64,000 nt of DNA from a virus. Its lineage: Duplodnaviria > Caudoviricetes. Within the stretch, counting starts at the first letter, position 1. Each line of letters opens with the position of its first letter. This document shows positions 8,325 to 30,560 of the stretch, in pieces. Below the pieces are notes generated by a model. That model did no database searches. It was not told the origin of the DNA and saw nothing but the letters and a program-made list of their open reading frames with translations. The stretch is from positions 32,001 through 96,000 of the IMG/VR virus record IMGVR_UViG_3300032321_001270; one strand, 5' to 3'. A program made the translations under genes and the position numbers.

Positions 8325-8443
8325 GGCATAACTTTCGTGCTGCCGCAGTGATACGGCGGGTCATACGGGCAGTTCTGGCATTTGCGACCACAACACATTT
8401 GCTGCGCTAGTAAAAACTCCCGGGACAGAGGCTGCGGGCTCAT
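8195..8443 (-). CDS. Small Cys-rich protein (CCGxxCxxCPY)
   Basis: CCGRKCQNCPY motif; the C-terminal half overlaps the HNH gene. Confidence 0.4.
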   Translation of the reverse strand: MSPQPLSREFLLAQQMCCGRKCQNCPYDPPYHCGSTKVMPCVPFFLPAGTPSNASCPSGCDPGTSSICGHAQAHGDGCGLNT

Positions 8444-8826
8444 AGCACGGTCGAAGCGTGCGTGAATTTTTTTTCGTAGTGGGCGTAAATGTCAGCGTAG
8501 GCCACACCCCACGCGGCATCATGCGCGAGCTTGTTGAACGCCTCGTCGTCCGCGGCGTTATCCAGCCGGTGGTTCCACGCCCGCGCATGCGCCCACTCGT
8601 GGATTAAAACATCCATGGAACGCGACTCGTCCAGACTCTTGTCGATCTGGATGTGGAACTTCTTGCCCTGTTTCCAGCAGCGGCCCTCTAACTTGGAGAG
8701 CTTGACGCGGCGAACGCTCACGGGAAACGCCGCGGGGCACTCTTTTTTGAGCATCCGCAGGAGGGCGTTGTAATACTTAAATCGAGCCGCCATGCTCCGT
8801 CCTCCTGAAGGGCGTCCTTGCCGCAA
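8440..8826 (-). CDS. HExxH zinc metallopeptidase-like protein
   Basis: DVLIHEWAH, followed later by AHDAAWG. Confidence 0.6.
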   Translation of the reverse strand: MRQGRPSGGRSMAARFKYYNALLRMLKKECPAAFPVSVRRVKLSKLEGRCWKQGKKFHIQIDKSLDESRSMDVLIHEWAHARAWNHRLDNAADDEAFNKLAHDAAWGVAYADIYAHYEKKFTHASTVL

Positions 8827-8879: not shown

Positions 8880-8999
8880 GTTTTAGTGCGCTTGAAGCGA
8901 CGCAGCCGTGTGATAGGATCGCCGAAGCAACCTGATCTTTGACGCGAGCGCCGAAGCTTCCGAGTCATTCTGGCGACGTCGCTTCAAAAGCACTAAAAC
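8880..8999 (-). ncRNA. Candidate structured RNA (long closing stem, two C-UUCG-G loops)
   Basis: 8880-8889 pairs with 8990-8999, and 8892-8902 with 8977-8987; gcttcggc occurs twice inside on the minus strand. Confidence 0.4.
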
Positions 9000-9823
9000 G
9001 TAAATTGAAATTTTGAAAGTTGTCGATACGGGGCTACGCCGGCGGGCGGATTACCGTCGGGCGGCGGTGAAAACGGATCCGGCCACGGTTGAAATATCGG
9101 GCGACATTTTATCGTTTGCGAGGGCGGACCAAACAAGTACGGATGTTTGGCTGTCGTATCTGGGTTTGTCACGGCAAAGCAGAAATAAAACGACAGCGAC
9201 AACGCCGTGCGTTTTTTGTTGCCCATGCGCGGACACACGATAGGAAATTTTCGCCGTTTGCCGTTGCCGGAGCCGCTGTCTGCCCACGGAATGCAATTAA
9301 TCGGAAAATCTTCTTTGGTGGGAATGCGCGCTTCTTCCAACAGCCAATAAAACTCAAAAACGTTAAATGCGTTCAGCAAACATATTTCGTACGGCCTAGG
9401 TTTGCGCGTGAGTCGTTCATCATGCACTTCAAACCGAAACTCAGTGTGGTACGTTTTTAAAACGCTAACAGGCCCGCCGGGTCCCGCGCCTCTGGGCCCA
9501 GCGCCACCCCAAAACGGCGTGCCGTTTGTGCCGTCATAATACCGTGTATAGTGCGGCGGATGTACAAACCGCCGCCGCTTTTGACGCTTACCGCCGCTCT
9601 TGCCGCGTTCGGCACGTTCGGCGAATAGCCAGACTCTGCTTGTCGCCAGCCACTCCTGCGTGCTGGTCTGTTCGTACGAGATGCCGATTTCCGGTACGTC
9701 GGGATGGTCGCGGCGCAATAGCGTCACTTTCGGGGCCGGGATGATCAACGGCAAGCCCGCGAGGTCGTGCGCCGACACGCTGGCGTTCTTGATGTTTCGA
9801 CCGCCAAAATTGATTTCATTCAT
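8993..9823 (-). CDS. Hypothetical protein
   Basis: 276-aa ORF fitting the operon spacing. Confidence 0.6.
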   Translation of the reverse strand: MNEINFGGRNIKNASVSAHDLAGLPLIIPAPKVTLLRRDHPDVPEIGISYEQTSTQEWLATSRVWLFAERAERGKSGGKRQKRRRFVHPPHYTRYYDGTNGTPFWGGAGPRGAGPGGPVSVLKTYHTEFRFEVHDERLTRKPRPYEICLLNAFNVFEFYWLLEEARIPTKEDFPINCIPWADSGSGNGKRRKFPIVCPRMGNKKRTALSLSFYFCFAVTNPDTTAKHPYLFGPPSQTIKCRPIFQPWPDPFSPPPDGNPPAGVAPYRQLSKFQFTF

Positions 9824-9847: not shown

Positions 9848-10615
9848 TTATGCGTTTCCGGCATTTTTCTGCAGCTGCGCTAACACAGCCGCCGCGCTCT
9901 TTTTAACGTCTTCGTCGCCCGAGTCTTCAGACTTTTCTTCTTTTTCGGCCGACTCTTCCTTGGGCTCATCATCTTTCTTTTTCTTGCCAATGCTCGCGCC
10001 GATGTTGCCACCCAGATGCGCGCCGGCCCCGAGGCCCAGTGCGCCGCCCGAGAGCAGGCCAATTCCGGCGCCCGGTCCGCCACCCAAAGCGCCGCCTGTG
10101 AGCGCGCCCATCAGGCCGCCGCCCACACCGCCGGCCAAGCCACCAACACCAGCGCCCAAGCCACCGCCGAGGGAAGAAAGCAGCGAGGCCGTCTTGGGTT
10201 GTTCCCACGACGGTTTGCCTAAAATCGCGCTGGTGCCGGCATAGCCAGCACCGCCCCCGACTGCAGCACCAGCCGGAGCGCCCATGCCGACGGCGGCCAC
10301 CAGCTTGCCAAGGTTCTCGCGGTTGCGCTGATTCATATCAAAACGACGTGGAATTTTAATCCCGCCGCGCGGAACCGGCAGCCGCTTGCCTTTCATCAAC
10401 ATCATCGCCGCCAGAATACCAGCCGGAATACCCGCCACAGCGCCTAAGCTCGTGCCCGTAGCTTTCGCCGCACCACGGCCAGCGCCTTCCATGCGGTGGC
10501 CTTCCGGCGACGTGACTGCGCCCAACCCGGCGCCGATCAGGCCCGGGCCTAAAAACGCCTGCTTGCCCATGGTCTTGCCAATCTGCATGCCAAACTGTTG
10601 CGGAGTTGCGGCCAT
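9848..10615 (-). CDS. Glycine-zipper membrane protein with KxA motifs
   Basis: MAATPQQFG...GKQAFLGP; long GxxxG repeats; the ORF could extend to 10759. Confidence 0.7.
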   Translation of the reverse strand: MAATPQQFGMQIGKTMGKQAFLGPGLIGAGLGAVTSPEGHRMEGAGRGAAKATGTSLGAVAGIPAGILAAMMLMKGKRLPVPRGGIKIPRRFDMNQRNRENLGKLVAAVGMGAPAGAAVGGGAGYAGTSAILGKPSWEQPKTASLLSSLGGGLGAGVGGLAGGVGGGLMGALTGGALGGGPGAGIGLLSGGALGLGAGAHLGGNIGASIGKKKKDDEPKEESAEKEEKSEDSGDEDVKKSAAAVLAQLQKNAGNA

Positions 10616-10718
10616 TCTGTCACCTGTGGCTTGAATAGAGTTTTGAATTTTTTTACTGGCTACGTGTTGAACGATCTTCTCGAACAGCTTGCGCCGCGAC
10701 AGCATCAGCGCCGTGAGT

Positions 10719-12881
10719 TTAGCGGTCGGGAGCGGCGGCATCAGCAGGCTCGTCGTCAAGAATACTGGGCGATTTCTTGGGCGTCGCTGTTGGGTATTTT
10801 AACAGCTTGCGGCGTTTCTTTGGAAGCGGCCGATTTGCGGCATCTGTTATTAACTTAAGCGACTTGAAAACCGCGCTTTCTTTCTCTTGGGTTTCAGGCT
10901 CGGGCTGCTGGCGTTTGAGATACTTCTGTAACTCCTGCTCCTGATATGCCTGCAGCATCGTTTTGATATCATCTTTTTTGGCTGGCGATACTAACTTGGC
11001 CGGATCAATGGCCCAGTGCTGCAGCGCCCAACCCCGGCGTGGCGACGGGCTCTTCATAAACGGCCCGCCATGGCGTGCTTTGAAGCTCGCCCAGCGCTTA
11101 ATCTGCCGGGTGTCTTCGTCTGGAATCCTGCGGCCGGAGTTATAGTTCTGATACCACTCCAGCCAGCCCTTGGGATCATGCTCGGTGACCCACTCTGGCT
11201 TCCACTCGCCCAAGCTGGCTAAGCGCGGGCCCTCTTGTTCATAGAGTGACTTGTACACACCCATGCGATGCAATTGGCCGGGTGTAAAATCTGGTTGAAA
11301 GTCCGGCAGCTCGGCGCTGGTCTTTACGCCGTGCTCGTCTTGGTAGCGCGTGCCTTCGTCGCGCAAGATCCGGCGAAACTCCTCGTTGAACTGTTCTTTC
11401 TCGTCGGCCAAGTGCGCCAGTACTTCGTCGCCGGTGCGCTCGCGCTTGTAGCCCAAGAATTTCCCAAGCATGCTGGGATCTTCCGAGGCGCTAAGATATC
11501 TTTGCACGAGCACGTTCTTGAGTTCTTCGGGCAAACCGACGTGCGAGTCAAAGCGCAGACCACGACCACGAGCTTGCTGGCTGCGCGATTCATGCCAGTG
11601 CGGGTCTAAGAGCTGAATAAGACTGGTGCCCTTCGTGGACAAGCCTTCAGCGCCAGCCGGGCCAATGAGCAACGCGCGTAACTTCCCGGCGTTGTATGCG
11701 TCGACCGCTTGCTGGCGAGCTTTGGGAGAAACACCGCCATGAAAGAACCCATAGGGAATCTTGGCTTTCTCTAGGCCGGCTGCGTACGGCGACAAGCCAG
11801 AGTCCACGAAGTTGGAATAGATAATCGCCTTCTTGCGTTTGTCACTCTTGAGCGTGTCCTGCAGGTTTTTGAACGCCGTCTGTAATTTTGCGCTTTGCTG
11901 GAACGCCTTGGCCGGATCTTTGTCGGCGCGAAACGGCTGCGTGGACAGACTTACTTGGCGCAGCCCCGACATGAAGCTGTTTAACTTGGCGAGTTCTTCC
12001 TTGGACAGCGGAAACTCTTGGTCCAGTTTCCATAAGAACCCCGGCGGAATCTTCGTGCGAATCGCTTTCTGGATCTTCTGCTGTTCGCTGCTCAGGGGCA
12101 CGCGCACGACTTGCTCGTTGACGTTCACGCCATCAGGAGTCTTGCTGGGCTGATAATCCACTTTGCCGCGTAACAAGCTGCGCAGTTCAGCTTCGTTCTT
12201 CACCACTGGTTTAACGCCGGGCTTCGCACCCCGCAGCCAACCAAACAGCCCCGGCCGCACGGTCTTCTGACCGACGTAGCGCTTCTCGAATTCTTCCGGT
12301 GTGATCTCTTTGTTATTGAGCATGGACAACAAGTTCGCCAAGTCACTGGGCGAATTGGTGACCGGCGAACCCGTTAATAACAAGAGGCGCTTGGCGTTGG
12401 CGGCGGCTTCGGCAGCACTGTATGAACTGGCGCTGTTGGGATTACGAAGCCTGTGCGCCTCGTCCATGATCAGTGTGTCGGGCTGCTGTTGAAACTTCTT
12501 GCCCAAGGCCAGCCCCGTGTAACTCATGATCTCGGGATTGGAGTTGCGCGTAAACTTGCCGATTTCTTTCTCGAAATTACCCCGCAAGCTAGCTGGAACC
12601 ACGATACCGTAGTCTTCGCCGGTCTCTTCCTTGGCTTTCTCGGCCGCGGCAATGCTAGAGAGCGACTTCCCTGACCCCAAACCGTGATAGACGAGCATGC
12701 GGGGATCGCCACTAGTCAGCCGGTCGGCAATGCGCTGCTGATGTTCCTGCAGCTGGATATTTGGGTCCAGCTCGGCCTGTTTGTCGGCCAAAATGCTCGG
12801 ACTGGCTGACTTATCGGCCCATGTTCGCACGGCGGCCACAAGATCGACCGGTAGCTGCGCCGTTTTGTTATTTGTATCCAT
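10719..12881 (-). CDS. SF2 (SNF2/D6-D11-like) helicase fused to a C-terminal DPxGW...RQIKRW domain
   Basis: YHGLGSGKS, DEAH, TGSP, GAEGLS and QQARGRGLRFDSH motifs. Confidence 0.85.
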   Translation of the reverse strand: MDTNNKTAQLPVDLVAAVRTWADKSASPSILADKQAELDPNIQLQEHQQRIADRLTSGDPRMLVYHGLGSGKSLSSIAAAEKAKEETGEDYGIVVPASLRGNFEKEIGKFTRNSNPEIMSYTGLALGKKFQQQPDTLIMDEAHRLRNPNSASSYSAAEAAANAKRLLLLTGSPVTNSPSDLANLLSMLNNKEITPEEFEKRYVGQKTVRPGLFGWLRGAKPGVKPVVKNEAELRSLLRGKVDYQPSKTPDGVNVNEQVVRVPLSSEQQKIQKAIRTKIPPGFLWKLDQEFPLSKEELAKLNSFMSGLRQVSLSTQPFRADKDPAKAFQQSAKLQTAFKNLQDTLKSDKRKKAIIYSNFVDSGLSPYAAGLEKAKIPYGFFHGGVSPKARQQAVDAYNAGKLRALLIGPAGAEGLSTKGTSLIQLLDPHWHESRSQQARGRGLRFDSHVGLPEELKNVLVQRYLSASEDPSMLGKFLGYKRERTGDEVLAHLADEKEQFNEEFRRILRDEGTRYQDEHGVKTSAELPDFQPDFTPGQLHRMGVYKSLYEQEGPRLASLGEWKPEWVTEHDPKGWLEWYQNYNSGRRIPDEDTRQIKRWASFKARHGGPFMKSPSPRRGWALQHWAIDPAKLVSPAKKDDIKTMLQAYQEQELQKYLKRQQPEPETQEKESAVFKSLKLITDAANRPLPKKRRKLLKYPTATPKKSPSILDDEPADAAAPDR

Positions 12882-13752
12882 CCGGCGTCCCTGTCGGTTC
12901 GGCGCGTTGGCTGGCGATAGGATCAGAGCCCGTCGTGGCTTGTGCGGCCAGTGCCAGCTCGTATTGCTTGATCTGCGATTCTACCCAATTCACATACAAA
13001 CTAATACGGGTGAACCCAGACTCGTCGCCGTATGTGCCGTCAGGTTTTTTGTCTTTGGCCATGAGAAACGAGTTAATTCCCGCTAACTTATTGCCAATAA
13101 ACATGCCGCCGCCAGAGTCGCCGGGGGCAATCATAAACTCTAGTGGAAATCGCCCAACGCCGCTGGTGGGAGAGCACACCAGCACGCCGCGCTCTTGGCC
13201 GTCGATCTTATTGTGCCCGGCGCGGCGATGGCCGTCAGACGATGTGCAGCCCGTGTGAAACGTGCCGTGCAGGCCGTAGCCGGAGAACGTAATTGCTTTG
13301 CCCAGCTCGTCGGAATCTCGGTACAGCTCGGGGTAAAACTCGGCCTTGAAGTCTTCCGGCGAATAACCCAGCGCCAGATCATAAAAGCCAAAGTTATCGT
13401 CTTGAAAGTCTTTGTGCGCGATCACGGTCTGGAGCGGAAACGGCTTGTCTCGGCCTTCGCGCAAGATGGCGGGCTCGGTGGTGTCTTTGACCACGTGGGC
13501 TGCGGTCAAAATCCAGTGCGGGCGAATGATCACCGCTGAGCCGTACTGGGGATGTTCTTTTAATTTGCATTCAGGCTTGTCGCACGTGGTATTGGCCCGG
13601 ATGCGCACCACGTTGGGAAACTGCTTGCCAAACTCGACGTATTTTTCATCTGGGGTGTTTGGATCGATCGTTCCCGCGGTCGCAAAGCGCGTGGATACAA
13701 TCACAACGATCACAAAGCGAAGCAGGCGGGCTAGAAATTCTTGCACATCCAT
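12868..13752 (-). CDS. Trypsin-like (S1) serine protease with signal peptide
   Basis: LTAAHV, DLAL, GDSGG catalytic triad; hydrophobic N-terminus. Confidence 0.9.
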   Translation of the reverse strand: MDVQEFLARLLRFVIVVIVSTRFATAGTIDPNTPDEKYVEFGKQFPNVVRIRANTTCDKPECKLKEHPQYGSAVIIRPHWILTAAHVVKDTTEPAILREGRDKPFPLQTVIAHKDFQDDNFGFYDLALGYSPEDFKAEFYPELYRDSDELGKAITFSGYGLHGTFHTGCTSSDGHRRAGHNKIDGQERGVLVCSPTSGVGRFPLEFMIAPGDSGGGMFIGNKLAGINSFLMAKDKKPDGTYGDESGFTRISLYVNWVESQIKQYELALAAQATTGSDPIASQRAEPTGTPDGYK

Positions 13753-13786: not shown

Positions 13787-15757
13787 TCATACTCGTTGTG
13801 GTTGGAGGAGTTTCATCGACTTGGCAAACATGGTGGGATCTAACTGTGGCTTGGGTGGAGCTTTGGGAGCGCCCCGGAGGAAAGATTGCCCTAAGCCGGT
13901 GAGGCCGTACCCGGCGGCGCCCATCAGACCGATTGCACCCAAACCAGCTCCAGTGCGCCGAAATGCGCCCTTTGCCAGATCTTTGAGCATCTGCCCTTTG
14001 TGCGTGACAAGTACAGGTTCGAAAATGTCGCTGAGTGCGGCGCGATTGGGCAGCACGGCTTGTACGGGGCCGCCGGGTTTCGCTGCGCCGGCTGCTTCAT
14101 AAACAGCCGGGATGAACGAACCGCAATGATGTCCGGTGCACGCGCCCCCACGCCCAAACAAACCGCGGAGTCGGTTCAGGCCCGTGATTTCGCCGAGCGC
14201 TGTGCCGCCTGCGCCTGTTGCGTTGTAAGGCTTCCATGCTTCTTGCTTGAACGCCTGCAACAAGTTATCAGAATCAATGTTGCCTTTGGGGCGCATCCAA
14301 AGCGTGCCCTTGTGGCCCAGCTCTTTGTTACCCGCACGATAATAACCAAGCGGATTCTGGCTCGACCCTTCAGCCACCGTGTGCTTGTAGACGTTATCAG
14401 CACTGGGATTGAACAATGTTTGCGGGCGTTTGGAAGCTTGCGCGGCGTCACGGGCTGGTTGGTGTTTTGTAAAATTTGAGAAGTCTGCCAACCACTCCCG
14501 CATGGTTTTATAGGCTGAACTTGGGCCTTCTTGCCAGAGTTTTTCACCAGTATCCGCCGCCGCAAACGCTGCATAATCCGTTGGCGACATGCCCTGCACA
14601 GCGTTTGCGTGCATGCCACCGTGGAGCAAGCTGGGCACAAAAGTCTCAAACTGCTTGGGTTTGAACAGCGCGGACCGAGGCAACGCAGACGCATCACCGC
14701 CCGCTGCTTGTAACAAAGCTTCGATGGTCTTTTGTTGCGTGGGAGTCTTTACGCCGCGAGCTTCTAAGTTTTTGGCCAACCGATCCCACATCGTCGGTTG
14801 ATCAAGCCGTAGCTCGTCGGCGATAGCCTTGAGCTTGGGATTCTTCGCACCCATTTCGTCAAAACGGCGGGCAAGCATTTCGTGACGCGACGCACTGTCT
14901 GTCATGTGCTGCAGCTGCCGCTCGAAGTCTTTTGCCGCTGTGTGCGGACCCTCGAAGAACGGCGCTGTTTGCCAGACAGCCTTGGGATTTCCAGTGCGTG
15001 TCGTGCCTACATGGCCTGTCTGTGTATTTCCCGAGTTCTTTTTGATATCTGCAAGTAACGTCTTAAAGTCTGACACTGAACGCGTCTTGGACTTTAACAA
15101 ATCATCAAGTTCATTGGCGCTTGGTCGGGGTGTCGCAGGACGCACCGCAGCCGCATCACCAGACCGTACTGCTTTGTCGTACGTGTCCCATGCTTTCTGG
15201 CGCGCTTGAGCCTTGGCCAACTGGGCTGTTCGAGAGCGCAGACGTTCTTTAGCGTAGCCGTATTGTTCAGTCCCGCGACCGGCGTCTAGCGCGTCGGCAT
15301 CAAGGCGCTTGGCAAACCGCTCGGGGTTCGTGGCCATCTCGGGCGAATATAACTCGCCGCGCTCGTTCATTAAGTATGCCAGCGCCGGGCCTAATTCTCC
15401 CGGTTCGGCTCCGGTGATTTTCCAATGCGGGCGCACATAATGGCCGGCGATCTGGCCGTGCGCGCCCACACCACCAGAGGCGCCATGCGAACCATGGACC
15501 AGCGCATTGGTAAACGTACTGCCGCCGCCCTGCAACCCAGAAACACCAAAGTCACCCGGATTGATCGTGGTCAGTACTTTGCGCAGATCCACGTTGCCGT
15601 TGGGTAGCGTGGCGTCTGGGGCCGCTTCCAGCATCTTGCGATACTGTGGGTATTCCCGCAGCAGATATTCCAGCAGCCCGACCGTCGGCAGACTGGCCCC
15701 GGCAACTGCGCCTACCGGGCGATAGTCAAACGGGGCATTCTGGTCGTTTGCGGGCAT
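13787..15757 (-). CDS. Large hypothetical protein, possibly a permuted papain-like (NlpC/P60, YiiX-type) fold with a long insertion
   Basis: N-terminal NPGDF...AHGQIAG and C-terminal HCGSFIPAVYEAAG...VLPN; Gly-rich hydrophobic tail. Confidence 0.45.
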   Translation of the reverse strand: MPANDQNAPFDYRPVGAVAGASLPTVGLLEYLLREYPQYRKMLEAAPDATLPNGNVDLRKVLTTINPGDFGVSGLQGGGSTFTNALVHGSHGASGGVGAHGQIAGHYVRPHWKITGAEPGELGPALAYLMNERGELYSPEMATNPERFAKRLDADALDAGRGTEQYGYAKERLRSRTAQLAKAQARQKAWDTYDKAVRSGDAAAVRPATPRPSANELDDLLKSKTRSVSDFKTLLADIKKNSGNTQTGHVGTTRTGNPKAVWQTAPFFEGPHTAAKDFERQLQHMTDSASRHEMLARRFDEMGAKNPKLKAIADELRLDQPTMWDRLAKNLEARGVKTPTQQKTIEALLQAAGGDASALPRSALFKPKQFETFVPSLLHGGMHANAVQGMSPTDYAAFAAADTGEKLWQEGPSSAYKTMREWLADFSNFTKHQPARDAAQASKRPQTLFNPSADNVYKHTVAEGSSQNPLGYYRAGNKELGHKGTLWMRPKGNIDSDNLLQAFKQEAWKPYNATGAGGTALGEITGLNRLRGLFGRGGACTGHHCGSFIPAVYEAAGAAKPGGPVQAVLPNRAALSDIFEPVLVTHKGQMLKDLAKGAFRRTGAGLGAIGLMGAAGYGLTGLGQSFLRGAPKAPPKPQLDPTMFAKSMKLLQPQRV

Positions 15758-27767: not shown

Positions 27768-28112
27768 TGGAGGCGGCGGGAGTCGAACCCGCGTCCAGAG
27801 ATATCTCCAGAAAGAACGTCTACGTGTGTAGGCAGTTGTTGTTTACACTCTTGCCAAAGTTAGCCGATTATCGGCGTCAGGTGGGCTACCACCATCTTGC
27901 CCTTTCTTACTGGGCCAGATCAGCCGATTATCGGCGTCAACCTGATTGGGCAATAAGGCTCAGGTCGCCTCACTCACTGGCCTATTAACTAGGCAGCGAG
28001 GGCCGGTGCAAAAGCGCCAGCTAGAAACGTAATCGGCTTTTAACGTGGCCAACCGATCAACCACGACACGCAGTCCTAACCTTCCTTATCCTGTCGATAC
28101 CAGTACGCCCCC
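27768..28112 (-). ncRNA. ssrA: tmRNA; predicted tag AGAFAPALAA
   Basis: 5' GGGGGCGTACTGGTATCGAC; pseudoknot 1; tag frame ending LAA-TAG; 3' GGGTTCGACTCCCGCCGCCTCCA. Confidence 0.93.
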
Positions 28113-28336
28113 GTATTGTTGTTGGCCATATTCCCATTGTGAGGCTGCGGCGCTGGTGGGCGCCTGCGTTTACCGCCAGCTCTTTTTAACGTAATTTATC
28201 TGGCGGCACCAACAACAAATTGAAAATCTCGCCGCAGGGATGTGGTGATTACACGTAGTTGCTACGCTCCCACGCACATTGAGGCTCATAACTTCCCCCT
28301 GCATTTCGCATCGCTGTACACACGCTGCCGAGACAA

Positions 28337-28410
28337 TAACCCGGGTGGGAGTCGAACCCACAACAAGTAGATCCTAAGTCTACCGCCTCTGCCAGTTGTG
28401 CTACCGAGTT
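28337..28410 (-). tRNA. tRNA-Leu(TAG) with short variable loop
   Basis: Cloverleaf; gtaga-CTTAGGA-tctac; 5-nt variable region. Confidence 0.8.
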
Positions 28411-28547
28411 AAAAATTGATGAGTGTCGATTAGGGGTCGCTTCCGATATACGAGCCACGTGGATAGGCATACCGGGAAATCGAACTTAAAACCTCACTAC
28501 CTCCTGCCGGGGATCAGCCGGAACAGTTCAATGGTTTTACTCATCAA

Positions 28548-28620
28548 TGACCCCACGGGGATTCGAACCCCGGTAAACGGAACGAAAATCCGTTGTCCTA
28601 GGCCACTAGACGATGGGGCC
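28548..28620 (-). tRNA. tRNA-Glu(TTC)
   Basis: Cloverleaf; acgga-TTTTCGT-tccgt. Confidence 0.9.
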
Positions 28621-28629
28621 ATTGTCGTC

Positions 28630-28815
28630 TCAGTCTACCTTCTCGACGTTTAGCGCGATAAGAAAACCACACATTTGCGCGAACGTGATCAGCTGCTTCT
28701 CTTTGAGTTTGAAGAAATCTGCAAAGTGAGTAAACAGATCACAAGGCGACAGATCTGTCGGGTTTTGCGTTTCGCGCAACTTAGATATCAATTCAGCGGC
28801 TCTTTCCAGCGTCAT
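28630..28815 (-). CDS. Small hypothetical protein
   Basis: AAGGAG SD before MTLERAAE. Confidence 0.55.
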   Translation of the reverse strand: MTLERAAELISKLRETQNPTDLSPCDLFTHFADFFKLKEKQLITFAQMCGFLIALNVEKVD

Positions 28816-28851
28816 CTTCTTGCTCCTTCGTGTAAAGATAACAAAACTCAT

Positions 28852-28922
28852 TGGGCCGCCAAGGAATCGAACCTTGCGTCGCGAGTTAATAAGACTCGCT
28901 TGCCTACCAGTTTCCGCGGCCC
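28852..28922 (-). tRNA. Atypical tRNA-Ile(TAT) or tRNA-like element
   Basis: Perfect acceptor, T and anticodon stems; loop CTTATTA; short unpaired D region. Confidence 0.6.
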
Positions 28923-28985
28923 GCGTGGGCGGGGCGCCAGCAGCTTGGGCTACTGCCAGCGCCCCGCCGTCAGCGAGTCTAACGC

Positions 28986-29330
28986 TTACCGATAGCGCTT
29001 GCACGCATACCAGCGGCCATCCCTGCCTCGCGCGACCCCTTGATCAACAACCCTCATTCCGCTGCGGCTGTAGCAGCAGTTATTCAGAGCCTGCTCGGGC
29101 GTGGAACCGGCGCCAACACCCTCGTAGCCTGAATTACCACCACAGTGCCCCATAGCACCGCGACTTGCCTGCATCTCTGCGACGCCTTGCGCCGTAGAGT
29201 TAGTGTAGGCATAGCTGCGCACAGACGGGATTGGCGTCGAACTGGTATAGCGTCGTACTACAACAGGGCCGTCGGCATGCGCAACGCCGACAACAGAGAG
29301 CGCCAATAGCGAAAGAAAAACGCGAATCAT
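28986..29330 (-). CDS. Secreted minimal CAP/SCP-like protein
   Basis: Signal peptide; MGHCGG..YEGVG..NNCCY..GVARG..GRWYAC. Confidence 0.55.
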   Translation of the reverse strand: MIRVFLSLLALSVVGVAHADGPVVVRRYTSSTPIPSVRSYAYTNSTAQGVAEMQASRGAMGHCGGNSGYEGVGAGSTPEQALNNCCYSRSGMRVVDQGVARGRDGRWYACKRYR

Positions 29331-29392
29331 ACGATCCTCCGTGACAAACCAAACAAACCACAGCCCGGAACATTTCTGCGCCGGGCTGACAG

Positions 29393-29466
29393 TAGGCGCA
29401 AAGGGACTCGAACCCCTAACCCCCTGCGTGTAAAACAGGTGCTCTGACCAATTGAGCTATGCGCCT
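29393..29466 (-). tRNA. tRNA-Val(TAC)
   Basis: Cloverleaf; cctgt-TTTACAC-gcagg. Confidence 0.92.
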
Positions 29467-29472
29467 GCGAGT

Positions 29473-29829
29473 CTAACCCGCGTGTTCTAACTCTCGACGA
29501 CGACGTGCTCGTGCCCAAGGCGACCGATTCCAATACCAGCCCCGCCAACGATTGCAATATCCACGCCACCGCCGGCGCAACTTGTGATACCACTTGTTGC
29601 GGCCGATGGTGGTTAAATAATGCTGCGTCCAGAAGCTCATCGACTCGTCCGATGTTCCGTCGATATAGCTTTCCCCGCAATCGAAGCACCGATTCGCCGG
29701 TACGCGAAACACCGGAACTTGGTGTTGCTGTCCGTCAATCAGCATCGACATGACGTCATTGAATTCAACGGCTTCAATACGCCCACCGCAGTGCATGCAC
29801 TTTAACGACTTGTAAATTGGCTTACCCAT
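29473..29829 (-). CDS. YgiT/MqsA-type zinc-finger protein
   Basis: CMHCGG...VPANRCFDCGESY. Confidence 0.65.
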   Translation of the reverse strand: MGKPIYKSLKCMHCGGRIEAVEFNDVMSMLIDGQQHQVPVFRVPANRCFDCGESYIDGTSDESMSFWTQHYLTTIGRNKWYHKLRRRWRGYCNRWRGWYWNRSPWARARRRRELEHAG

Positions 29830-29841
29830 GTCGCCCTCCAA

Positions 29842-29926
29842 TGGCCAAGGCGGGAATCGAACCCGCACGGGAAGTTATTCCCAGCGGATTTTAAGTCCGC
29901 TGCGTCTGCCGTTTCGCCACTCGGCC
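29842..29926 (-). tRNA. tRNA-Leu(TAA)
   Basis: Cloverleaf with long variable arm; gcgga-CTTAAAA-tccgc. Confidence 0.95.
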
Positions 29927-29935
29927 AACCGCCTG

Positions 29936-30280
29936 CTAAACCAGCGCCGGATCTTCCCGCTCGGCGGGAGCAGGATACTTGTCGGGGTGACCGATGTGCA
30001 TGAACTTATCGCGCCCCGACCGACTATGCGTGCCGCATCCTGATCGCAAAATCATTGCTTCCTTGAAGTACTGATACACGCGATCGATGTCCAGATACTC
30101 ACGATACGTCAACCCAGCCTCCAATTGCCGCGGCCGATCCAGCATTTCTCGCAGCGTATTCAAATGCTCGGCGATCTTGTCGTTGTAGTACTCGGCCGTC
30201 GTTTCCAGATCATCTTTGCCGTTGTTGATCATACACGTACCTCTTGTCCCCAATTTGACACCACCAACGCTGCCCATCAT
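29936..30280 (-). CDS. Hypothetical protein (start possibly MINNG)
   Basis: ORF between tRNA genes. Confidence 0.5.
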   Translation of the reverse strand: MMGSVGGVKLGTRGTCMINNGKDDLETTAEYYNDKIAEHLNTLREMLDRPRQLEAGLTYREYLDIDRVYQYFKEAMILRSGCGTHSRSGRDKFMHIGHPDKYPAPAEREDPALV

Positions 30281-30440
30281 TCCAGTAGATGGGTGTAACA
30301 GACGCTGACGGGGGTTGCAACTCGGTCGGTTTCGGGTGGGCTTTTTGATACTCTTCGTAGCTTTCCCACGCGATTCCGGCCAACATCAGCAACGCCGTGA
30401 TCAACCCGATTAAGTTACCTTTAATCTCGATCCCCTTCAT
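30210..30440 (-). CDS. Small membrane protein
   Basis: AAGGAGG SD; N-terminal TM helix. Confidence 0.65.
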   Translation of the reverse strand: MKGIEIKGNLIGLITALLMLAGIAWESYEEYQKAHPKPTELQPPSASVTPIYWNDGQRWWCQIGDKRYVYDQQRQR

Positions 30441-30486
30441 TTCAAACCTCCTTGTTTAGAAATGAAACCCAAAAAGAATCCCCCAA

Positions 30487-30560
30487 TGCCTCCTCTAGGA
30501 TTCGAACCTAGGACCAACGGATTAAAAGTCCGATGCTCTAACCAGCTGAGCTAAGGAGGC
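30487..30560 (-). tRNA. tRNA-Lys(TTT)
   Basis: Cloverleaf; tcgga-CTTTTAA-tccgt. Confidence 0.95.

Follow-up and report, generated by a model that had tools for sequence, protein, structure and literature searches.

The 64,000-nucleotide (nt) window analysed here, taken from an IMG/VR jumbo phage record of 205,188 bp that is judged complete (IMGVR_UViG_3300032321_001270), encodes on its minus strand, which carries nearly all of the window's genes, a 720-aa open reading frame (ORF; 10719-12881) in which an SNF2-family ATPase is followed by an all-alpha mobile module, here called domain X. On balance, we favour the explanation that this protein is a cargo polyprotein, of the 'polyvalent protein' kind, that is loaded into the capsid and cut by a protease, and whose ATPase would act on the incoming genome. 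Judged from its sequence and from its relatives, the protein is probably taken up into the capsid, cleaved into its parts and delivered into the host together with the DNA; cleavage, packaging and cooperation with the phage RNA polymerase (RNAP) are steps that we infer from the evidence presented below.

From the N-terminus, the ORF consists of a leader (residues 1-36; 12774-12881), the ATPase core (residues 37-517; 11331-12773), a linker (residues 518-523; 11313-11330) containing K520-T-S-A523, domain X (residues 524-660; 10902-11312), a second linker (residues 661-670; 10872-10901) containing K667-E-S-A670, and a C-terminal tail (residues 671-720; 10719-10871), all on the minus strand. The leader carries K-x-A triplets at K6, K24 and K34 and ends with DKQA, while the tail comprises VFKSLKL, a basic stretch, K702-K-S and an acidic end. 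An earlier note on this DNA had placed a helicase between DKQA and KTSA and a second, unrelated domain between KTSA and EKESA. The ORF and all motifs quoted there were recovered, with YHGLGSGK at residue 65, DEAH at 140, GAEGLS at 410, DPHWH at 426, DPKGWLEWY at 569 and ALQHWAIDP at 619, and with DKQA, KTSA and EKESA at residues 33-36, 520-523 and 666-670. The three junction motifs fall on module boundaries that were set independently: BLAST alignments with homologues cover the helicase core from query residues 31-34 to 510-516 and domain X from 528 to 656, and the AlphaFold models are ordered over residues ~39-517 and 533-658. These limits agree with the helicase and second-domain boundaries of the earlier note, and its proposal of two separate modules is borne out. 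Six of the seven K.[AS] triplets of the query lie within the ~15% of residues outside both folded modules; the seventh, K350, lies inside the folded core beside a predicted beta-strand (351-355).

By its motifs and predicted fold, the core (residues ~37-517) is an intact SNF2-family ATPase, active-looking and of the double-stranded DNA translocase type. It scored above the Pfam gathering cut-offs for both SNF2-rel_dom (45.5 bits; cut-off 24.9) and Helicase_C (46.9 bits; cut-off 23.5), and matched phrog_62, annotated "DNA helicase", in PHROGs (E 2e-44), where only the middle of the 1881-position profile was matched. Motifs I (GLGSGKS), II (DEAH), III (LTGSP), V (GAEGLS) and VI (QARGRGLR) are invariant in a 26-member family alignment, and motif VI runs on into a FDSH..LPEE..V.V.RY extension. 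The AlphaFold (AF2) model of residues 30-520 (predicted local distance difference test score, pLDDT, 86.8) has the two RecA-like lobes and helical inserts of an SNF2-type fold, and the top 50 Foldseek matches were SNF2-family ATPases, including Mot1 and the poxvirus ATPase NPH-I, led by Chd1, ISWI and CSB (E ~1e-19, TM 0.64-0.68). Scores against the NCBIfam bacterial families DpdE, DrmD and ZorD were far below their cut-offs. RapA was not among the PDB matches listed (43 at E <= 0.01 for the whole core; best 60 per lobe profile), though a distant kinship with it may exist.

The case for a cargo polyprotein begins with the way in which these modules are shuffled. The helicase has more than 600 relatives, many on contigs of ~200 kb. 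In BLAST alignments, the helicase core (query 34-516) and domain X (528-656) were always both present, in either order; domain X was found in 136/136 helicase-bearing relatives, in 14 arrangements. Writing H for the helicase, X for domain X and + for an extra module, the most frequent were H-X (30), X-H (29), X-[+]-H (18) and [+]-H-X (15), the rest being others. Extra segments number 102 across the 136 relatives and fall into at least 23 groups, with P-loop, NUDIX and uncharacterised modules among them.

The joints between modules carry a recurrent motif, (E)K-x-(S/G)-A followed by E, D, A or V, and the earlier suggestion that such sites frame the helicase gained strength across the relatives, where K-x-A/S stands at junctions far above chance. 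A K.[AS] triplet lies exactly 6 residues ahead of the core start in 99% of the 136 relatives. Where domain X is internal, K.[AS] occurs within 25 aa upstream in 87/105 non-redundant contexts (83%), several of the misses being K-x-G-A/S variants; where domain X starts the protein, the figure is 11/47 (23%), against a background of 20% in random windows. The codons of the motif vary synonymously and its middle residue varies as well, so it is the peptide, rather than a DNA joint, that is under selection. A role as a DNA recombination joint was accordingly rejected, the synonymous sites being freely variable. We also rejected a genome-wide enrichment of K-x-A, for which observed/expected is 0.99.

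A second recurrent peptide is the acidic tag (N/P)SILDD, which is found near both ends of the ORF, as SPSILAD in the leader (residues 27-33; 12783-12803) and as SPSILDD in the tail (residues 704-710; 10752-10772). In relatives it stands at residue ~3, at a junction, or 12-25 residues short of the C-terminus, and no other protein of the 205-kb genome has it. The tag may serve in docking or sorting.

Domain X is predicted to be all-helical with high confidence (AF2 model, pLDDT 94.4) and has conserved W, R, D and Q residues, including GRR..D..RQI.RW. Pfam gave nothing for it even at E 10, including the LPD families that derive from Iyer et al. 2017 (PMC5512222); its profile had no match among PDB sequences at E 10, its model had no Foldseek match in the PDB, BFVD returned just two marginal, unnamed matches, and an atlas search gave unnamed viral clusters only. 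The sources of divergent stand-alone copies gave no clue to its identity either. In a wide fold search (VIA), nothing scored higher than the ORFan C-terminal domain of the mimivirus sulfhydryl oxidase R596, a match (Z 5.0 over 113 aligned residues) that cannot be called at this strength. One atlas cluster resembling domain X is mainly from Nucleocytoviricota, and this cluster and the R596 neighbour faintly suggest that domain X may be shared with giant viruses. In an exhaustive search, domain X was found in 551 representative clusters, either stand-alone (~120-200 aa) or placed anywhere within a larger protein, the longest having 2184 aa. Ten divergent carriers were examined, with InPase, AAA_18, 2H/Acb1 and SNF2 domains among them; InPase, 2H, P-loop kinase, NUDIX and SNF2 all belong to the polyvalent-protein repertoire as given in Iyer et al. 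2017 (PMC5512222). Domain X may be a nucleic-acid binder or a loading adaptor.

Evidence for packaging comes from cultured phages. The only good matches of the helicase among them were gp217 of Salmonella phage Arash (WGL32668.1, annotated 'DNA helicase') and the helicase of Pseudanabaena phage PA-SR01 (QIW88461.1), with 33% identity over the core. Both belong to the same SNF2 subfamily as the query and both are encoded among head genes; the extension R.R(F/Y).SH..LPE...V.V.RY is common to them and to the query family, and the Gordonia and Bacillus phage SNF2 helicases that were compared are without it. In Arash, the gp217 gene comes straight after that for RNAP beta'-C, without any gap, within the block that runs from the portal to the major capsid protein (MCP). 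Purified Arash particles yielded 38 unique peptides and 1148 spectra for gp217, compared to 1210 spectra for gp216 and 1333 for the MCP (PMC10585845). This detection of gp217 in virions (PMC10585845) makes the packaged and processed role that had been proposed from the sequence a plausible one. In the window's genome, a single block contains homologues of Arash gp206, gp216, gp218, gp222 and the MCP, including the same RNAP genes. The PA-SR01 helicase has a different N-terminus of 140 aa; these residues (L002:8581-9000), which stand in the place of domain X, include two twin-arginine-like strings, RRNFLKN and RRQFLKN.

The junction motif is shared with head proteins. K.[AS] is strongly enriched in head-block proteins of the window's genome, most of all in the gp222 homologue (z 4.9); enrichment is seen as well in Arash gp220, gp222, gp223 and gp225 (z 2.2-4.5). 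Between homologous proteins of the two phages that are only 23-30% identical, the site positions are kept in 3/8 cases for gp222 and 3-4/6 for gp218, compared to 0/4 for beta'-C. Elsewhere in the genome, a 391-aa protein encoded far from the head block (G000:C1:158006-159181, plus strand) has 13 K-x-A (z 6.6), mostly as EK(L/V/A)A(A/E), and could be a repeat or a further substrate.

The gp222 homologue, a 517-aa protein encoded outside the window (G000:C1:3061-4614, L020, minus strand), is also our candidate for a head-maturation protease resembling gp21 of phage T4. Its homologues include the Arash virion protein gp222 and the N-terminal part of Spud gp97, from a mycobacteriophage. A Cys-rich insert, CS.CGNKA...EYC.H, is present, and the protein's 17 K-x-A are the highest load in the genome. 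His134 and Ser195 are invariant in the family. In a weak hhalign match they align with His85 and Ser140 of T4 gp21, which we take to be catalytic residues, and NRNGDGF aligns with NRNKRLYP. T4 gp21 has a His/Ser/Asp triad (PMC5694885). Pfam families S77 and S78 were absent from the genome scan, PHROGs and Pfam gave no match for ten head-block proteins, phmmer found nothing in the PDB for the 517-aa protein, and the homologues of this protein in cultured phages are unannotated.

Taken together, we propose that two independent modules, the SNF2 ATPase and domain X, are joined to each other and to terminal tag peptides by Lys-x-Ala/Ser linkers, and that this precursor would be built into the prohead. 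A head-maturation protease, for which the gp21-like 517-aa protein is the candidate, would then cut after the small residue of K-x-A/S, and the freed modules would be ejected together with the DNA. The ATPase would most likely act on the incoming genome with the virion-associated two-chain RNAP, in a RapA- or NPH-I-like manner, its tasks being to move or release the polymerase or to strip host proteins off the DNA.

Several observations weigh against this explanation. The proteomic support comes from the Arash homologue; the Arash virion list comprises 116 proteins, and its authors caution on carry-over (PMC10585845). Arash gp217 is itself a bare core of 472 aa, with no leader, domain X, tail or other extra module. 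In the window's genome, the helicase gene lies ~25 kb from the RNAP/head block, in a block of genes with no assigned function. The link to RNAP is not universal, because PA-SR01 has the helicase and no beta'-C homologue was detected there. K-x-A is a low-information motif; the triplet ahead of the helicase core could be just part of the helicase module. Statistically, the alignment with gp21 is poor (hhalign probability 0.8%, E 0.07). Lastly, a pure loading-adaptor role for domain X does not explain the stand-alone domain X proteins.

The cutter may also be a different enzyme, encoded just upstream of the helicase and possibly working outside the capsid. This trypsin-fold serine protease (12868-13752, minus strand; Pfam Trypsin 49.5 bits), with HDS motifs and a hydrophobic N-terminus, shares 14 nt with the start of the helicase gene and stands directly upstream of it in 10/10 related contigs. 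Its triad motifs are intact. Its best PDB match is the elastase-type proteinase 3 (PR3), in a weak alignment that puts a Leu at the equivalent of position 216 and thereby suggests that small residues are preferred at P1. The protease has no counterpart in Arash or PA-SR01, and the helicases of these two phages are single-module or differently built. We nevertheless hold this assignment to be rather doubtful and favour a head protease, because Arash head proteins carry the motif, both enriched and conserved, though Arash is without the trypsin-fold protease. The hydrophobic N-terminus, moreover, suggests export or membrane anchoring, and we know of no prohead protease with a trypsin fold.

The earlier note had also set the helicase beside the D6/D11 proteins (VETF-s and NPH-I) of nucleocytoplasmic large DNA viruses (NCLDV), as resembling these more than bacterial SNF2 proteins. 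The vaccinia chains used for comparison were NPH-I (D11; 6RFL chain Y) and VETF-s (D6; 7AMV chain W). With a single sequence as query, Rad26 and a Sulfolobus Rad54-like ATPase ranked above NPH-I (E 8e-4) and VETF-s (1e-3). With a family profile of the whole core, NPH-I came 4th at 40.7 bits, level with generic SNF2 proteins (Sulfolobus Rad54-like 46.6, ISWI 42.1, RAD5 41.1, RAD26 39.8), and VETF-s reached 27.5 bits. The NPH-I match covers motifs V-VI and runs on into a common extension of motif VI, (G)R..R..SH..(L/T)P.E...V.V. Profiles of each lobe, which included Arash and PA-SR01, separated the signals. The C-lobe profile placed NPH-I first among all PDB chains (40.2 bits, 110/151 positions), followed by Hef at 33.3 bits and classical SNF2 proteins at 29 bits or less. 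The N-lobe profile was led by SWR1, Sulfolobus Rad54-like and ISWI (42-45 bits), with VETF-s 19th at 37.7 bits and NPH-I outside the top 60. Foldseek ranked NPH-I 35, with a TM-score similar to those of others.

By these comparisons, the resemblance to NPH-I is real and specific, but limited to the C-lobe and to D11; the claimed affinity thus stands for that lobe, with its shared extension, whereas the N-lobe, the whole core and the fold are those of a generic SNF2 protein, D6 scores lower, and a closer kinship over the whole core fails. Poxvirus NPH-I is packaged in the virion with the viral RNAP, and gp217 is packaged alongside the Arash RNAP, which speaks for a phage counterpart of NPH-I, related to the NCLDV proteins by common descent or gene transfer. 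Such a specific relationship is nonetheless unlikely. The nearest relatives overall are phage proteins, and since the PDB has no phage member of this helicase subfamily, the top match there does not identify a sister group.

It is similarly improbable that the protein stays uncut, with K-x-A/S as ordinary flexible linkers in an intact cytoplasmic enzyme of recombination, replication restart or transcription and with domain X as an accessory nucleic-acid binder. In jumbo phages, SNF2 helicases do serve in recombination (PMC7824862), domain X has a high content of Trp and Arg and is always present with the helicase, and the proposed cleavage is a prediction from sequence. An accessory domain that cooperates in cis would, however, be unlikely to tolerate 14 orders with unrelated inserts. 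The fall of the motif to background when domain X begins the protein, its enrichment and positional conservation in head proteins, and the abundance of the Arash homologue in virions all point away from an uncut enzyme as well. A DarB-like anti-restriction ATPase that shields the injected DNA is very unlikely: the phrog_62 and phrog_11801 matches lie inside long profiles of methylase-helicase type and SNF2 modules are typical of DarB-type polyvalent proteins (PMC5512222), but no methyltransferase domain was found in the query or in the 136 relatives examined, and a methylase-helicase dyad of the DarB type was rejected on that ground.

The surrounding genes form a conserved neighbourhood, the order w497 - w389 - w656 - trypsin-fold protease - helicase polyprotein - Gly-rich protein - SprT-like zincin - HNH being kept in ten related contigs. 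The 656-aa protein w656 (13787-15757, minus strand), which has no assigned function, is the first in a packed block that continues with the protease, the helicase and the Gly-rich protein. Promoter and terminator scans of the block gave nothing above chance and no signal that would split it. The Gly-rich hydrophobic protein (9848-10759, minus strand; 303 aa, 6 K.[AS]) overlaps the 3' end of the helicase gene by 41 nt and has 191-686 aa in relatives. None of the ten related contigs has an equivalent of the 276-aa ORF between the Gly-rich and SprT-like genes (8993-9823, minus strand); there the Gly-rich protein is longer instead, reaching 686 aa. The SprT-like zincin (HEWAH; 8440-8826, minus strand) matched the Pfam SprT-like family at E 2e-4, below the cut-off, and is the most conserved gene of the block, with 78-92% identity in relatives; it also matched, weakly, the family M35 of lysine-specific metallo-endopeptidases. 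No homologue of w656, w782 or the SprT-like protein was found in Arash or PA-SR01. Further along the window, ARAGORN predicted a tmRNA-like gene and five tRNAs (Leu-TAG, Glu, Val, Leu-TAA, Lys) at 27768-30560 on the minus strand.

Polyvalent proteins, according to PMC5512222, are proposed to be packaged, delivered with the DNA and split into units by proteolysis. Those of phages and conjugative elements likewise string several unrelated enzymatic modules into one polypeptide and draw on common partner domains, and the protein described here, with its SNF2 ATPase and domain X, combines two unrelated domains from such a shared network. Polyvalent proteins typically include a zincin metallopeptidase; here none is embedded and there is no methylase partner. 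The trypsin-fold protease gene is adjacent, and the SprT-like zincin, which scores below its Pfam cut-off, is two genes away. K-x-A/S junction marks and free permutation of modules distinguish the present family, and the passages of PMC5512222 that were consulted make no mention of the motif for polyvalent proteins. A 480-aa protein of the same genome (G000:C1:27092-28534, minus strand; L022:7793-9235) combines 2H-SAK, a 'Swiss Army Knife' 2H phosphoesterase, with DUF5661 and is another protein of polyvalent type.

Head-maturation proteases offer the closest parallel for the proposed cutting. T4 gp21, phiKZ gp175 and SPN3US gp245 are such enzymes, with the codes L/I-x-E in T4 and A-x-E in SPN3US, and their substrates include the T4 internal proteins and Alt as well as the ejection proteins of SPN3US, whose capsid also holds a virion RNAP (PMC10052503, PMC5694885). 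Like these substrates, which have a three-residue code, removable targeting peptides and several cuts per propeptide and among which packaged enzymes are ejected into the host (PMC10052503, PMC5694885), the present family has a short motif at its module boundaries that it shares with head proteins. The predicted sites differ in being K-x-A/S, with Lys at P3 and a small residue at P1, and in standing between whole enzyme modules instead of serving only to remove N-terminal propeptides.

For the polymerase link, two precedents are relevant. A phage SNF2 helicase encoded beside the beta'-C gene has been proposed to be RapA-like in jumbo phages of the phiKZ group (PMC7824862). Arash has the same adjacency of helicase and beta'-C, in contrast to the window's genome, where the helicase lies apart from the RNAP genes; none of the 97 phage records matched by the helicase is of the phiKZ type. 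Vaccinia NPH-I and VETF-s are SNF2-type ATPases packaged with a multisubunit viral RNAP, and the C-lobe likeness is to NPH-I. Unlike in vaccinia, no Rap94-type partner is known here, and in N-lobe and fold, eukaryotic or archaeal SNF2 proteins are at least as near as NPH-I or VETF-s. As a tentative extension, which we regard as possible and by no means probable, a Lys-x-Ala protease code in a large uncultured clade of ~200-kb phages would string interchangeable enzyme modules into a self-disassembling capsid cargo, in which the constant SNF2 motor, with the C-lobe closest known to that of NPH-I, would together with a virion-associated bacterial-type RNAP be the phage counterpart, possibly an evolutionary relative, of the packaged transcription machinery of poxviruses.

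If the chain is cut after loading, its modules would be free to be added, dropped and reordered, which would account for the 14 arrangements. Cutting at K-x-A/S in the prohead would then show by what route the set of injected proteins evolves in large phages; the head protease would have a specificity unlike the L/I-x-E and A-x-E codes of T4 and phiKZ-type phages, and injected proteins would become predictable from sequence alone. Domain X, predicted to fold with confidence, would be a widespread addition to the known cargo modules of phages. The SNF2 motor is nominated as a partner of the newly noticed two-chain phage RNA polymerase, and its C-lobe, and that lobe only, provides a concrete sequence link between phage SNF2 proteins and poxvirus NPH-I.

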